The position numbers and the translations under genes were made by a program. Source: a virus (lineage: Duplodnaviria > Heunggongvirae > Uroviricota > Caudoviricetes). From it: a DNA stretch of 30,815 nt. Each line of letters begins with the position of its first letter. The first letter of the stretch is position 1. The stretch lies in the IMG/VR virus record IMGVR_UViG_2531839668_000005; one strand, given 5' to 3'. Under the pieces are notes generated by a model. The model was not told the origin of the DNA and did no database searches. It was given only the letters and a program-made list of their open reading frames with translations. Below are positions 13,312 through 16,927 of the stretch, in pieces.

Positions 13312-14208
13312 CTATGACTGGCTGTTTTCAGTAAGAGTCTTATCATCCAAAGAATTTATTCTAGAAATTCTTTTTAACTCATTAAGATAATCAACCTCGT
13401 TTTCTAAGAACCAATGAAGAACTTTAGAGTTGCCAAGTAATTTATTAATATATGACTGGATTATAACGAATTTCAACATATCTGAACCATACTCGGTTTG
13501 AAGTTTTTTCGTTTCTTCCGAAGTTGTTGCCATTTCTTGTTCCAGACGAAGTATGGTTTTTTTTATGTCCTTTTTATAGGGAGTGTTTTTCCCTTTATTT
13601 ACTATCATCGATGACGGTGTTGCATCCAAGATGCTCATTGCAAATTTTTTACTATAATTATCAAAATTAATCATTGTACCGACTGCTTCAATTTGACGAA
13701 TTGGCTTCATTTTCCTCAAAACGTCAAATGTAGCCTTAGGTATAGGTTTATCAGAAAGTTTCGCAATTACACTTGGATCTATGCCGTTCATCACATTAGC
13801 TTTATCTTTTATGGCATCAACAGATATGCCCAAAGCAGCACTAAGTTTTTCAATTGATACTTTTGCCAGAGACTTAATTATCATTCTATGTTCTTCAACT
13901 ACATTTATATGATTCACTTGTTTGTTAGGAGTGAAAGCATCATCTATGCTCGAAAGTATACATGGAGCTTTTTCTATATCTAAGTCTTTTAAAGCCTCAA
14001 CCCTTAAATGGCCATCAAGTATCTTAGTGACATCTTTATCTTTGTCATAGAATACTATTATTGGTTCAATAATACCCAAGCTTTCGATAGAGGTAACTAT
14101 TTGATGATATTTATGGCTTCGCTTTACGTTTTCTAATAATTCCTTAGATGGAATTAACTTATTAGTTTCCAGGTAAATAAAATTTTTGCCAAAACGTATC
14201 TGAATCAT
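13312..14208 (-). CDS. ParB/Srx-like N-terminal domain protein (298 aa)
   Basis: N-terminal region ...IIVFYDKDKDVTKILDGHLRVEAL... resembles the ParB-box / DGQHR-type motif of ParB-like nuclease domains; start overlaps the upstream gene stop (ATGA). Confidence 0.5.
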   Translation of the reverse strand: MIQIRFGKNFIYLETNKLIPSKELLENVKRSHKYHQIVTSIESLGIIEPIIVFYDKDKDVTKILDGHLRVEALKDLDIEKAPCILSSIDDAFTPNKQVNHINVVEEHRMIIKSLAKVSIEKLSAALGISVDAIKDKANVMNGIDPSVIAKLSDKPIPKATFDVLRKMKPIRQIEAVGTMINFDNYSKKFAMSILDATPSSMIVNKGKNTPYKKDIKKTILRLEQEMATTSEETKKLQTEYGSDMLKFVIIQSYINKLLGNSKVLHWFLENEVDYLNELKRISRINSLDDKTLTENSQS

Positions 14209-15101
14209 TTTGATACCTCTTTGTTTACTGGGTTTAATATCTGAGATGGTAGTTCTGAAAGATTCTCTTGTTCAAGTATATTTTGAAAGCTTTTATTCAT
14301 CATTATGATGTTAAAAATCTCATTTATTATTAGTAGATTGGTTTTTATAAATTTCGAGTTGTTATAAACAGATTTATGTTCAGCGATACTATTTTCATAA
14401 AGCTCAATCAACTCCTCTGCAGTCATCCTTTTTGATGGTTTGTGATAATAAAATCCGGCTGCTTTTGCACCTTTATTCCCAACTGTTCTTTGATTTAGAA
14501 TGTATTTTATCTTTATAATGTCCCGACTTTTTATTAATTTTTTATCATATGCTTCGGTAAGAATATCTTGTGCTTCCTCAGTTTCACATCTTGCAAATTG
14601 CACTGCGAGATACAGAGGCAAATTACCCCGTTCGACTGCTGAGAGAAGTTTATGCTCTCCCTTATCAAGAAGCATATTAATACTGCTCACCCAGTTCGAT
14701 GAATATCCAGTAATCTCACTTATTTCGGAGTCTGAAAGTCCTCTGATTTTCATGTCTTTAATCACCTGTAATAACTCATTAGAACGTGGTCTTCTCCTTG
14801 CAATGTTTTCAACTAAACTCATAACGTAAGCATCTTCTTCTGATACATCTCTTATAATTGCTGGAATAATAGTTTCACCTAATGCAACAAGAGCCTCTAT
14901 TCTCCCTTGACCACAAATTAAAGCATATTTGAAATCGTCTTCATCAATAGCTCTTACGCTTATAGGCTTGCTTAATCCTCTTTTTTTTATGCTTTCCTTT
15001 ATTTCTTCATGCACTACCTTATTTCTTGTTCGTGGGTTAAGAAATTTTATTTTTGCAATCTCAATTTGAATTATTGGGAATTCATTTTTTTCAGGCAGCA
15101 T
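14205..15101 (-). CDS. ParB/Srx-like N-terminal domain protein (298 aa)
   Basis: N-terminal region ...PISVRAIDEDDFKYALICGQGRIEALVAL... resembles the ParB-box motif; same length as its neighbour. Confidence 0.55.
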   Translation of the reverse strand: MLPEKNEFPIIQIEIAKIKFLNPRTRNKVVHEEIKESIKKRGLSKPISVRAIDEDDFKYALICGQGRIEALVALGETIIPAIIRDVSEEDAYVMSLVENIARRRPRSNELLQVIKDMKIRGLSDSEISEITGYSSNWVSSINMLLDKGEHKLLSAVERGNLPLYLAVQFARCETEEAQDILTEAYDKKLIKSRDIIKIKYILNQRTVGNKGAKAAGFYYHKPSKRMTAEELIELYENSIAEHKSVYNNSKFIKTNLLIINEIFNIIMMNKSFQNILEQENLSELPSQILNPVNKEVSK

Positions 15102-15696
15102 ATAGTTCCCTCACTTTCATGCGAGTAATAATTTGTAGAAATTTATCAAGATTATCAAATCTATAGAGATCTAACCGAATGTTGTTTGTTTCCATCATAC
15201 ACATTTTACTATATTCGTTTTCAATCTTTGGTATGATATAAAAATCAAGAGGTGAAATATTTTGTGAATTCATTCGTATAACAATTGTTATGTCTGCTTT
15301 CTGTGAGTTATCAAACCGGACTTTCCATCTAAGTTTACCTGATTTCATATGTATGCATTTAGTAACAAGGACGGAAATTAAAAACTCATCATTGATGTAA
15401 AGCATTGGGTAATATTTATACTCGTCTATATGACAGTTACTTTTTAATATTTCGCCCTTAAAATCCTCAATTATCTCTGAGTAAAATGATCTTAGTGCTT
15501 CATTTATTTGGAGATAGCTGTAATCATGTTCTGGCTTATAACCAATCAAAGTATATGCTCTTAAAAGACCACCAAATCGGGTTCTATAAACAGAAGATGA
15601 AGGGCCTGTATCATCTTCATCAATGATAAAGCCTGATAGTTTTCCATTAGATTCTAATTTTTCTTTTAGCTTTTCTAATAGATCTTCATTAGTCAA
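15091..15696 (-). CDS. hypothetical protein (201 aa); possibly the C-terminal part of a split large serine recombinase
   Basis: TTG start only; its frame is open upstream to 15760 and overlaps the open frame of the recombinase ORF across a T6 homopolymer (15738-15743). Confidence 0.45.
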   Translation of the reverse strand: MTNEDLLEKLKEKLESNGKLSGFIIDEDDTGPSSSVYRTRFGGLLRAYTLIGYKPEHDYSYLQINEALRSFYSEIIEDFKGEILKSNCHIDEYKYYPMLYINDEFLISVLVTKCIHMKSGKLRWKVRFDNSQKADITIVIRMNSQNISPLDFYIIPKIENEYSKMCMMETNNIRLDLYRFDNLDKFLQIITRMKVRELYAA

Positions 15697-15730
15697 ATGA
15701 ATGGATCGGAGCTGAATTATTTCTTGAGCT

Positions 15731-16645
15731 TTATATATTTTTTCTTTGAAATAATTGGTTTATATGCCTTGTCACATCTAATCCATTCATGTTTGGGGTT
15801 TTTACAAGCTTACTTTTTAGTTTAGATGAGGTTTTGTTATATATGTTGTTTCCAATATATTTTTCATTTGTCAAAATTTGATGTATTTTTGCACGAGTCC
15901 ATGATGTTCCATTTTCTGCAGGTATGCTCTGTTCATTTAATCTCTCAGCAATAATGAATTCTGGGACGTTACTATCTATAAAGAGATCATAGATTCTATT
16001 TACAATTTTTATTTCATTTTTTGGTCCCGGAATTAATATTACCCTATCTGTTTGAATACTCTTTCTTTTGCGGAAATTCAATATTTCTTTAGCTATGCCA
16101 TTTTCGTCTACTAAAAGACGTCTCAGCCCATAACCAGCCATACCGCCTTGATGATAACCAAGCTTTATTAAATTTACTTGCCCTATAAATACCTTTTCAG
16201 ATAGATTCCTGCTGTGATATGCAGCACTTGATCTTTTTATATTCAGTATAACAGAGGACTCTAAAGGGAAATCTTTAGTGGGTATAGGTTCGGAACAATA
16301 TATAAGATCTACACCATTTCTTTCAAATAGAAAGGAATAATATGCAGCTTCATCACTATTTTGAAAACGACCAAAACGGCTCACATCATAAAATAATACA
16401 GCCTGTATATCTATTTTCTTTTGTTCTACATCGCTAAGTAACTGCTGCAAAGAATGCCTGCCTACGATACTGACTCCGCTCTTACCTGCATCATCGTAGG
16501 TATAAGCGATTTCCATATTGTTCTTTTCAGCATAATCTTTGATATATTCAGACTGATTATGTAAAGAATATTGCTGATGGTCGGTAGACATCCTCAAGTA
16601 CTGTGCGACCCTAACTCTATGATTTTTTTCATTTCCGCTAGCCAT
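15731..16645 (-). CDS. serine recombinase-like protein (resolvase catalytic domain plus recombinase domain; lacks zinc-ribbon C-terminus)
   Basis: RVAQYLRMSTDHQ catalytic-serine motif near the N-terminus and WTRAKIHQILTNEKYIG recombinase-domain motif; ATG at 16643-16645 with GAGG upstream. Confidence 0.65.
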   Translation of the reverse strand: MASGNEKNHRVRVAQYLRMSTDHQQYSLHNQSEYIKDYAEKNNMEIAYTYDDAGKSGVSIVGRHSLQQLLSDVEQKKIDIQAVLFYDVSRFGRFQNSDEAAYYSFLFERNGVDLIYCSEPIPTKDFPLESSVILNIKRSSAAYHSRNLSEKVFIGQVNLIKLGYHQGGMAGYGLRRLLVDENGIAKEILNFRKRKSIQTDRVILIPGPKNEIKIVNRIYDLFIDSNVPEFIIAERLNEQSIPAENGTSWTRAKIHQILTNEKYIGNNIYNKTSSKLKSKLVKTPNMNGLDVTRHINQLFQRKNI

Positions 16646-16927
16646 GCACAAAACCTCATGGATGATTCAATACAATGTAGAGGATAAAATTGATCAAATT
16701 TTAACCGAATTCAACTGTTTTATCATTGATTAGAGCGAATTTGGTAGTTCTTCGAGGTGTATGATAATCGAGAAGAGATGTGAATTATTTAGCTGATATG
16801 ACCGACAGCTTTCGTTATGTGGCCTCAAGGTACCCATTTGTAAATGGCTATGCTTAGTCCACATAGGTTAATGGTGTGATCATTAATTCTTCAAATAAAT
16901 CAAGATAGTTAACCCATCATGGAAGAG

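Follow-up and report, generated by a model that had tools for sequence, protein, structure and literature searches.

Gene content of the locus and a split recombinase gene

In the window (the whole 30,815-nt stretch of DNA analyzed here), four co-oriented open reading frames (ORFs) lie on the minus strand directly downstream of a P4-type tyrosine integrase gene: ORF 1 (306 aa; 16651-15731), ORF 2 (201 aa; 15696-15091), ORF 3 (ParB1, 298 aa; 15101-14205) and ORF 4 (ParB2, 298 aa; 14208-13312). The integrase (16928..18157, minus strand; annotated as 409 aa in relatives) carries the Pfam domains Arm-DNA-bind_3, Phage_int_M and Phage_integrase and belongs to an island inserted at ssrA, whose attachment-site remnant is a copy of the ssrA (tmRNA) 3′ end at 18322..18368 (minus strand; 100% match to the ssrA 3′ end in thousands of E. 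coli genomes). No complete tmRNA gene was found in the window with ARAGORN or Rfam. ORF 2 and ORF 3 overlap by 11 nt and the two 298-aa genes by 4 nt (ATGA), and G+C content falls to 30–36% here, compared with 45–53% in nearby integrase and prophage DNA. These observations agree with the initial annotation as regards overlapping co-oriented ORFs (for ORF 2/ORF 3 and ORF 3/ORF 4), an AT-rich setting and an adjoining P4-type integrase. The intergenic stretch that separates the integrase stop from the recombinase start (16646..16927, minus strand) presumably contains the promoter and any operator; its lone promoter-like match (16726-16698) is expected by chance, and a promoter/terminator scan gave no excess over chance. 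A repeat search around the genes returned AT-rich chance matches only, and Rfam gave no match on the window or on the corresponding unit of one relative.

The four-gene operon originally proposed is reduced to three genes by comparison with relatives. ORF 1 and ORF 2 are the two halves of a single gene (15091..16645, minus strand; here a 304-aa ORF at 15731-16645 plus the 201-aa ORF at 15091-15696), the intact counterpart of which encodes the 518-aa recombinase WP_000146253.1 in the reference E. coli 300709. Between positions 13000 and 17000 the window differs from E. coli 300709 solely by two 1-nt deletions: one in an A5 run (15799..15803, minus strand; A6 in relatives), followed by ~22 out-of-frame codons and a stop at 15731-15733, and one at 15733..15734 (minus strand), changing ‘tataataaag’ to ‘tatataaag’. 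Each of the 25 complete E. coli genomes that match best has the gene intact under a single recombinase annotation, the alignment covering 4003 bases (4001 in the window), and the 518-aa gene is intact in nine of ten further assemblies inspected, being disrupted by an IS in the tenth. Only a single contig records the exact 304-aa truncated product (EII76150.1, E. coli 3.2303), and relatives lack the split, which is therefore strain- or assembly-specific. It may reflect a sequencing error or a real mutation; the recombinase gene reads as a pseudogene here, and this copy would be non-functional if both deletions are real.

Domains of the recombinase and the two ParB-like proteins

The N-terminal part of the recombinase matches the Resolvase catalytic domain (PF00239, 3e-22), including the serine motif RMSTDHQ, and a long alpha-E helix is followed by a Recombinase domain (PF07508, 5e-14), in line with the catalytic serine and Recombinase-domain motifs noticed earlier. 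R18, S20, D87, R90 and R93, the full serine-recombinase catalytic set, are invariant across 41 homologs. Structural alignment was obtained to SprA, Bxb1 and PhiC31, and the best fold matches, over ~320 residues, are serine integrases. Nearly all of the best 150 recombinase cluster representatives align along most of the length of the protein. The C-terminal part (15091..15696, minus strand), previously listed as an unknown 201-aa protein, is a domain of the recombinase itself, with a helical, HTH-like portion and then a PD-(D/E)xK-like fold resembling the homing-endonuclease/Hjc (restriction-endonuclease-like) type. In the homolog alignment, D452, R458 and D468 of this nuclease-fold domain are nearly invariant and no conserved Lys is seen. 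There is no Pfam match to Zn_ribbon_recom and no conserved CxxC pair is visible among the 41 homologs, so that the recombinase is not a short form ending before a zinc ribbon, as had been supposed, but belongs to a family that has the PD-(D/E)xK-like fold instead when intact. Assignment to the IS607-type serine transposons was rejected, given a score of 38 bits against a model cut-off of 110, the N-terminal position of the catalytic domain, and within-genome copies that are 73–88% identical.

In ParB1 (14205..15101, minus strand), the N-domain bears the motifs CGQGR and EN..R and is joined by an HTH and a C-terminal region. The protein matches Pfam ParB_N (1.6e-13) and RepB (2.7e-7), scores above the cut-off of TIGR00180, and has sequence matches in the PDB to Spo0J, ParB, Noc and KorB; its motifs are conserved across 75 orthologs. 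The GxxR and ENxxR motifs serve CTP-dependent clamp closure in ParB, Noc and KorB. The ParB-like protein ParB2 (13312..14208, minus strand) is divergent: it carries a DGH.R motif, its middle and C-terminal region is strongly RepB-type (RepB, 5e-24), ParB_N falls below the cut-off (3.4e-5), EN..R is absent (conservation examined in 71 orthologs) and Noc is the sole PDB match (7e-6). Both 298-aa proteins are thus ParB-like, as initially annotated, ParB_N being matched in each (below cut-off in ParB2), and both are named ‘ParB/RepB/Spo0J family partition protein’ in RefSeq. The relationship to DndB and DUF262/GmrSD that had been drawn does not hold: neither Pfam nor NCBIfam gave a match to these families at E ≤ 0.1, and the proteins are Spo0J/ParB/Noc/KorB-like with an HTH.

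The view that this is not a partition locus was upheld, with no ParA/Soj-type ATPase in the scanned ORFs of the window or in annotated relatives, and no ParA among the 25 most frequent families flanking 80 loci. Neither the repeat search nor comparison of upstream blocks identified a ParB binding site or a conserved palindrome. BisD of ICEclc is a precedent for a ParB-like protein on a mobile element without ParA (PMC12409273). KorB, matched by ParB1 in the PDB, provides a further precedent for ParA-less ParB-like action on mobile elements.

Distribution of the three-gene module

Of 5426 complete E. coli genomes, 663 carry the cassette, with 665 matches that are all chromosomal rather than plasmid-borne, and an assembly collection lists the exact ParB2 protein in >10,000 blocks. 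dN/dS values of 0.05–0.16 in E. coli indicate that all three genes are under purifying selection. The integrase and trio form a fixed block, while the downstream cargo varies from immediately after ParB2, placing the trio between the ssrA P4-type integrase and a variable defense slot. Adjoining defense genes in E. coli include NACHT/NA-iREase2 with RelA-SpoT, an AAA ATPase with a UvrD helicase, and a type ISP restriction-modification (R-M) enzyme; AbiE and Fic are neighbors on pAtC58, and DISARM, ThsB-TIR, PDC-S24, McrBC and type I R-M genes are found at other loci. ssrA is a recognized defense hotspot in E. coli (PMC10121019), and small Gin/Pin-like serine recombinases of Bacillota have been proposed as markers of defense loci (PMC12632615). 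The suggestion that the genes occupy a variable integrase-proximal slot is therefore correct as to a defense-rich neighborhood but not as to the trio, which is fixed with the integrase and adjoins the slot. PADLOC-DB v2 gave no match for the recombinase or ParB1; ParB2 matched a type II methyltransferase model in its generic ParB_N portion only. Of the defense module of unrecognized architecture that had been postulated, the unrecognized architecture stands, no description having been found, but no defense model was matched beyond this generic ParB_N hit.

Across distant loci in several phyla, the order recombinase-ParB1-ParB2 is kept in ~130 of 147 cases, comprising 73 of 80 genome loci (contig ends cut six of the other seven) and ~55 of 67 provirus-region loci. 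The loci belong to Alpha-, Beta- and Gammaproteobacteria, Acidobacteria, Myxococcales, Verrucomicrobia and Desulfobacterota, share only ~45% identity in the recombinase and ~35% in the ParB proteins, and have overlapping or closely adjacent reading frames. The check on neighborhood conservation suggested at the outset thus recovers the group across phyla, as three genes. The architecture of the trio is conserved, and the literature searched contained neither a description of the module nor any experiment on it.

Several comparisons define a discrete block of ~3.8–4.1 kb. Homology between pAtC58 and other plasmids ends 16 bp outside a small gene (see below) and resumes 33–48 bp after ParB2, and in two pairs of loci (L016/L080 and L054/L062) identity of 86–88% is confined to the block. 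Horizontal transfer is indicated by 95–97% identity of a Halothiobacillus MAG to Rhodobacterales genomes. Several genomes carry multiple copies, which are 73–88% identical to one another rather than identical as for an IS, and a Sinorhizobium copy is a degraded remnant. The module was found on 103 plasmids, large rhizobial ones among them; it also adjoins tyrosine integrases in several lineages and occurs within predicted provirus regions. Its neighbors vary and are rich in mobile-element and defense genes. IMG/VR provirus boundaries often coincide with the recombinase; since boundary callers are suspected of using integrase genes as markers, this was not counted as evidence. Block boundaries were recovered in Agrobacterium plasmids with no clean empty site, short contigs holding the unit alone were not circular, and the repeat search and boundary comparisons yielded no recombination sites, repeats or empty-site junctions.

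Outside enterics, a small divergent gene usually lies upstream of the trio. It is absent from this window, which contains no homolog, and matches no Pfam family. In Rhodobacterales, a conserved block precedes the recombinase; its reading as an operator was rejected, as it corresponds to the coding N-terminus of the small gene. Mainly in Alphaproteobacteria, the trio is also accompanied by a structured RNA-like element of ~230 nt that is absent from Rfam; its covariance models found no match in the window, even with filters off. Neither the window nor any of 13 relatives contains a tRNA or tmRNA according to ARAGORN, and on this basis a role of the element as a tRNA/tmRNA attachment target was rejected.

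Interpretation and relation to known systems

The locus is best read as one instance of a self-contained mobile-DNA module of three genes that is widespread and is joined outside enterics by the small divergent gene as a fourth component. For its function, the leading candidate is ParB-assisted site-specific recombination of mobile DNA, to which we assign a probability of about 0.4. ParB1 and ParB2 would probably bind DNA as a heterodimer, loading at a specific site and acting as an accessory or licensing factor that positions or activates the recombinase. The recombinase would then perform site-specific strand exchange (integration, excision or resolution) on the segment carrying the module, possibly with the variable cargo next to it. 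The E. coli module is now built into the backbone of a mobilizable ssrA island, between the P4-type integrase and the defense-gene slot. The recombination reading draws on the conserved gene order, the invariant catalytic residues and serine-integrase fold, the discrete block with its sign of horizontal transfer, the occurrence on plasmids, beside tyrosine integrases and in predicted provirus regions, the constancy of integrase and trio beside varying cargo with low dN/dS in E. coli, and the KorB and BisD precedents. Against this reading, the tyrosine integrase already accounts for integration at ssrA in E. coli and the neighborhoods resemble defense islands and mobile-element backbones equally; further counterarguments are the divergence of within-genome copies (73–88% identity), the failure of the searches to turn up recombination sites, repeats, empty-site junctions or a ParB binding site, and the lack of any experiment on the module in the literature searched.

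An anti-phage or anti-plasmid system, in which the ParB pair senses or loads onto invading DNA and the recombinase cuts or scrambles it through its serine site or PD-(D/E)xK-like domain, is a serious alternative that we nevertheless regard as unlikely. The compact operon under purifying selection, the multiple divergent copies in several genomes, the nuclease-type fold within the recombinase and the defense genes adjoining it in E. coli, on pAtC58 and elsewhere are all consistent with such a role, as are the position in the ssrA hotspot (PMC10121019) and the proposal of serine recombinases as defense-locus markers (PMC12632615). However, a mobility module of defense islands would equally adjoin defense genes, and in E. 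coli the trio is invariant backbone rather than alternating cargo. The PD-(D/E)xK-like domain has no conserved lysine, and no PADLOC model was matched except for the generic ParB_N part of the methyltransferase model. We also know of no defense system with a serine recombinase as effector. The trio might also be a new class of conflict or mobility machine, in which a heterodimeric ParB-type CTP switch licenses a nuclease-fold serine recombinase, with the ~230-nt structured RNA as a component in its large, mainly alphaproteobacterial branch. Such a machine could serve immunity, by recombining or cutting invading DNA, or else be a novel recombinase system that moves defense cargo; this is likewise a doubtful proposition.

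It is very unlikely that the recombinase serves as an inversion or phase-variation switch, flipping or deleting a segment that controls the variable cargo next to it while the ParB-like proteins play an accessory or regulatory part. Variable cargo does begin right after ParB2, and serine invertases beside defense genes provide a precedent (PMC12529663), but no convincing inverted repeats flank any segment of the window, the E. coli matches inspected gave no sign of orientation variants, and the protein is of the large integrase type rather than a Hin/Gin-type invertase. The RefSeq names of the 298-aa proteins, the strong RepB match in ParB2 and the presence of the module on large rhizobial plasmids could instead point to a remnant of plasmid maintenance (a multimer resolvase plus partition ParB on an integrated element). 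This is scarcely probable, given that annotated loci and the most frequent flank families include no ParA, that two ParB paralogs are consistently found downstream of this particular recombinase, that 665 of 665 E. coli matches are chromosomal, and that the recombinase is no small resolvase but of large serine recombinase (LSR) type, with a nuclease-fold domain.

The cassette is common, yet is annotated merely as ‘recombinase’ and ‘partition proteins’. Its function, once known, would explain a backbone component of a frequent defense-carrying ssrA island. ParB-assisted recombination would add a case of ParB-family proteins partnering a recombinase instead of ParA, and the protein itself would be a serine recombinase with a DNA-recognition module unlike those of the genome-engineering integrases now in use. 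The RNA-like element of relatives is a separate lead for RNA biology.

Among known systems, PhiC31, Bxb1, SPbeta SprA, TP901-1, TnpX and CcrAB share with the trio recombinase an N-terminal resolvase domain with the full catalytic set, followed by a Recombinase domain. Large serine recombinases then have a zinc ribbon with an embedded coiled coil, whereas the trio recombinase has a helical module and a PD-(D/E)xK-like fold and, unlike them, is linked to two ParB-like genes. Recombinase-associated defense loci are similar in placing a serine recombinase beside variable defense genes in a known hotspot, but the recombinases of PMC12632615 are small and Gin/Pin-like, while that of the trio is LSR-like, with a nuclease-fold domain and two ParB-like partners. 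DndB and DUF262/GmrSD have a ParB/Srx superfamily N-domain in common with the trio ParB proteins (DGH.R motif in ParB2), which differ in their partition-type HTH/RepB regions. KorB of RK2, BisD of ICEclc and Noc resemble ParB1 in combining an HTH with a ParB N-domain that bears GxxR and ENxxR motifs, and KorB and BisD also occur without ParA on mobile DNA. The trio differs from these systems in its tandem paralogs, one with a degenerate N-domain, and in having a recombinase as the partner of its ParB proteins in place of KorA or BisC.

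Three genes at the locus

The ORF listing bore out four co-oriented minus-strand ORFs at 13312–16651, and the P4-type integrase placed upstream was confirmed as a 457-aa ORF with all three P4-type integrase domains (Pfam). The 306-aa ORF (16651–15731) matches Resolvase (3e-22) and Recombinase (5e-14), the 201-aa ORF (15696–15091) has no significant Pfam match, the first 298-aa protein (ParB1; 14205–15101) matches ParB_N (1.6e-13) and RepB (2.7e-7), and the second (ParB2; 13312–14208) matches RepB (5e-24), with ParB_N sub-threshold. The 201-aa ORF runs 11 nt into the next gene, and ParB1 and ParB2 share 4 nt. 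G+C content is 30–36% here, versus 45–53% in the adjoining integrase and prophage DNA.

The ORFs are thus real, but the initial annotation mis-parsed them: there are three genes rather than four. Megablast of complete E. coli genomes with window 13000–17000 found a match in 663; in the best 25, 4003 bases aligned to the window's 4001, and each is annotated with one ‘recombinase family protein’ and two ‘ParB/RepB/Spo0J’ genes. E. coli 300709 differs from the window in this segment at two positions only, both 1-nt deletions in the window: one in an A-run at 15799–15803 (A5 versus A6) and one at 15733/15734. In E. coli 300709 the 306-aa and 201-aa ORFs form a single 518-aa protein, and the supposed separate 201-aa protein is the C-terminal module of that recombinase. 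The truncated 304-aa product has an exact record (EII76150.1, E. coli 3.2303) on one contig only, and the 518-aa recombinase adjoins an exact ParB2 in nine of ten other assemblies inspected (an IS breaks it in the tenth), so the split is peculiar to the window's assembly or strain, and may reflect either an error of sequencing or a true mutation. In the assembly collection the exact ParB2 protein is indexed in more than 10,000 blocks.

The E. coli island at ssrA

The 3′ end of ssrA is present as a copy at ~18322–18368. In E. coli relatives the order is ssrA, integrase, recombinase, ParB1, ParB2 and variable cargo (NACHT/NA-iREase2 plus RelA-SpoT; AAA ATPase plus UvrD helicase; or a type ISP R-M enzyme), followed in most of those inspected by DUF4928, ankyrin and relaxase genes. 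In E. coli 300709 the cargo position contains NACHT/NA-iREase2 and RelA-SpoT genes (9488–12763 of its fetched locus, L001); in the window an IS3-family element with overlapping OrfA/OrfB (10540–11711) has taken the place of the slot's content. It had been asked whether the trio sits in a variable integrase-proximal slot; because the ssrA-integrase-trio order is constant while the cargo beyond ParB2 varies, with IS3 in the window, the E. coli trio is backbone adjoining the variable slot. Where an integrase of just 79% identity occupies this ssrA site, the trio is missing. Between alleles ~6% apart, dN/dS is 0.16 for the recombinase, 0.05 for ParB1 and 0.07 for ParB2.

The IS3 element is separated from the trio by a 126-aa ORF of no Pfam family (11879–12259) that is also conserved in E. 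coli 300709; a DUF6387 protein is encoded at the island's far end (195–1040). Within the E. coli pan-genome, the tmRNA locus is known as a hotspot for defence genes (PMC10121019). The junction between the P4-type and P2-like integrases is another variable slot, since in E. coli 300709 an anti-phage dCTP deaminase is annotated there (L001:19594–21351) and the equivalent window segment (18400–19130) has short ORFs only. In the adjoining P2-like prophage, a 138-aa ORF followed by a 200-aa TIR-domain protein (TIR_2, 3.6e-17; 28478–29497) may be a prophage-borne defence gene pair.

Conservation and mobility of the module

Eighty loci were fetched via the recombinase alignment from one-genome-per-species contigs. 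Recombinase, ParB1 and ParB2 orthologues follow in this order on the same strand in 73 (ParB identity ~35%); six of the other seven end at a contig edge and one is disrupted. Both ParB orthologues recur in ~55 of 67 further non-enteric loci (IMG/VR provirus regions). Taxa include Alpha-, Beta- and Gammaproteobacteria, Acidobacteria, Myxococcales, Verrucomicrobia, Bdellovibrionaceae and Desulfosarcina. The neighbourhood is therefore conserved across distant loci as a unit of three genes: a genuine, widespread module combining known families unusually. No experiment on it or description of it was found in the literature searched, and it is apparently uncharacterised so far.

Outside E. coli the P4-type integrase does not usually adjoin the module. 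A tyrosine integrase 23–45% identical to the window's adjoins it, in varying orientation, in four non-enteric lineages (IMG/VR loci L101, L126, L127, L152), so pairing of the kind found in E. coli has recurred independently. At least 47 loci have, upstream of the recombinase, a small divergently transcribed gene (~100–140 aa; e.g. L007:7504–7932 and L084:4083–4490, both minus strand) that belongs to no Pfam family and has no counterpart in the E. coli version; its conserved MRWTGASERTAKNWLSG-like core resembles an HTH. No conservation was seen among downstream genes across loci. In a flank census both sides were heterogeneous, as is typical of mobile elements and defence islands, with defence genes (DISARM, ThsB-TIR, PDC-S24, Fic, type I R-M, McrBC), terminases, GTA genes, transposases, tyrosine integrases and a TrwC relaxase.

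The module forms a discrete block: on plasmid At of Agrobacterium fabrum C58, the homology shared with other plasmids stops 16 bp outside the small gene and restarts 33–48 bp past ParB2. The block alone is 86–88% identical in several locus pairs, and 95–97% identity between a Halothiobacillus MAG and Rhodobacterales genomes shows that transfer between them was recent. Copies within one genome diverge (73–88% identity). The module occurs on 103 plasmids, most of which are large and rhizobial, and a single contig with it is labelled as phage.

A conserved RNA-like element of ~230 nt, co-oriented with ParB2, begins just past its stop codon in 37 of 71 genome loci and in 18 of the 67 from provirus regions, most of them from Alphaproteobacteria (e.g. 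L007:11303–11540, L062:11406–11640, L010:11380–11620; alignments A2 and A3, covariance models R1 and R2). It consists of a multi-stem core of 105 nt, a pair of variable hairpins and a long-range GGGCGTGCC/GGCACGCCC stem, with compensatory changes in 19 of 38 predicted pairs; it has no Rfam match, was not called as tRNA or tmRNA, and is absent from the window. The element is separable from the trio: of the relatives L054 and L062, 88% identical to each other, L062 alone carries it, and in three provirus loci no ParB2 precedes it. L190, L195 and L197 have it with no trio upstream, and in L069 the contig breaks off within it.

Possible function and relation to known recombinases

ParB1 passes the TIGR00180 ParB cut-off, and its best solved-structure matches (Spo0J, ParB, Noc, KorB) cover both N-domain and HTH. 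Its 75 orthologues keep NPR.R, GLK.PITV, CGQGR and SLVEN.ARR. GxxR and ENxxR motifs serve CTP-dependent clamp closure in ParB CTPases, and CGQGR and SLVEN.ARR would be their counterparts. ParB2 orthologues keep LLDGH.R and not EN..R; ParB2 has a strong RepB-type region and a weak solved-structure match, to Noc only. The proposed likeness to DndB or DUF262 did not hold, neither protein matching those models, and PADLOC returned for them only the ParB_N part of a methyltransferase model.

We tentatively favour, at a probability of roughly 40%, a ParB-assisted site-specific recombination module of mobile DNA, because a catalytically complete recombinase is strictly coupled to two ParB-family DNA binders and the module moves horizontally as a block, residing on islands, plasmids and provirus regions. 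The main rival, a defence or exclusion role, draws only on the module's neighbourhood and the nuclease-type fold of the recombinase, and we consider it rather unlikely. The idea that serine recombinases flank defence systems has been put forward for small recombinases of Bacillota (PMC12632615). Both remaining readings are less likely than these: an inversion switch is improbable given that a repeat search around the trio found no inverted repeats, and with no ParA seen in the window or in annotated relatives a plasmid-maintenance remnant is hardly to be expected. A modest share of the probability goes to functions beyond these four readings.

The recombinase has 1344 homologues at E < 1e-30 among 1.84 billion cluster representatives; the best 150 are mostly of 500–540 aa, aligned over residues ~10–510. 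Among 41 diverse members the residues of serine-recombinase catalysis (R18, S20, D87, R90, R93) are invariant and the C-terminal 200 residues are conserved, D452, R458 and D468 nearly invariantly; their alignment shows no conserved CxxC pairs and no conserved lysine of the classical D...(D/E)xK signature, which leaves any nuclease activity putative. The window's protein had been described as ending before a zinc ribbon; none is indeed present, but intact members, C-terminal module included, lack it too. A zinc ribbon is a defining feature of serine integrases, and it is in this respect that the family differs from them.
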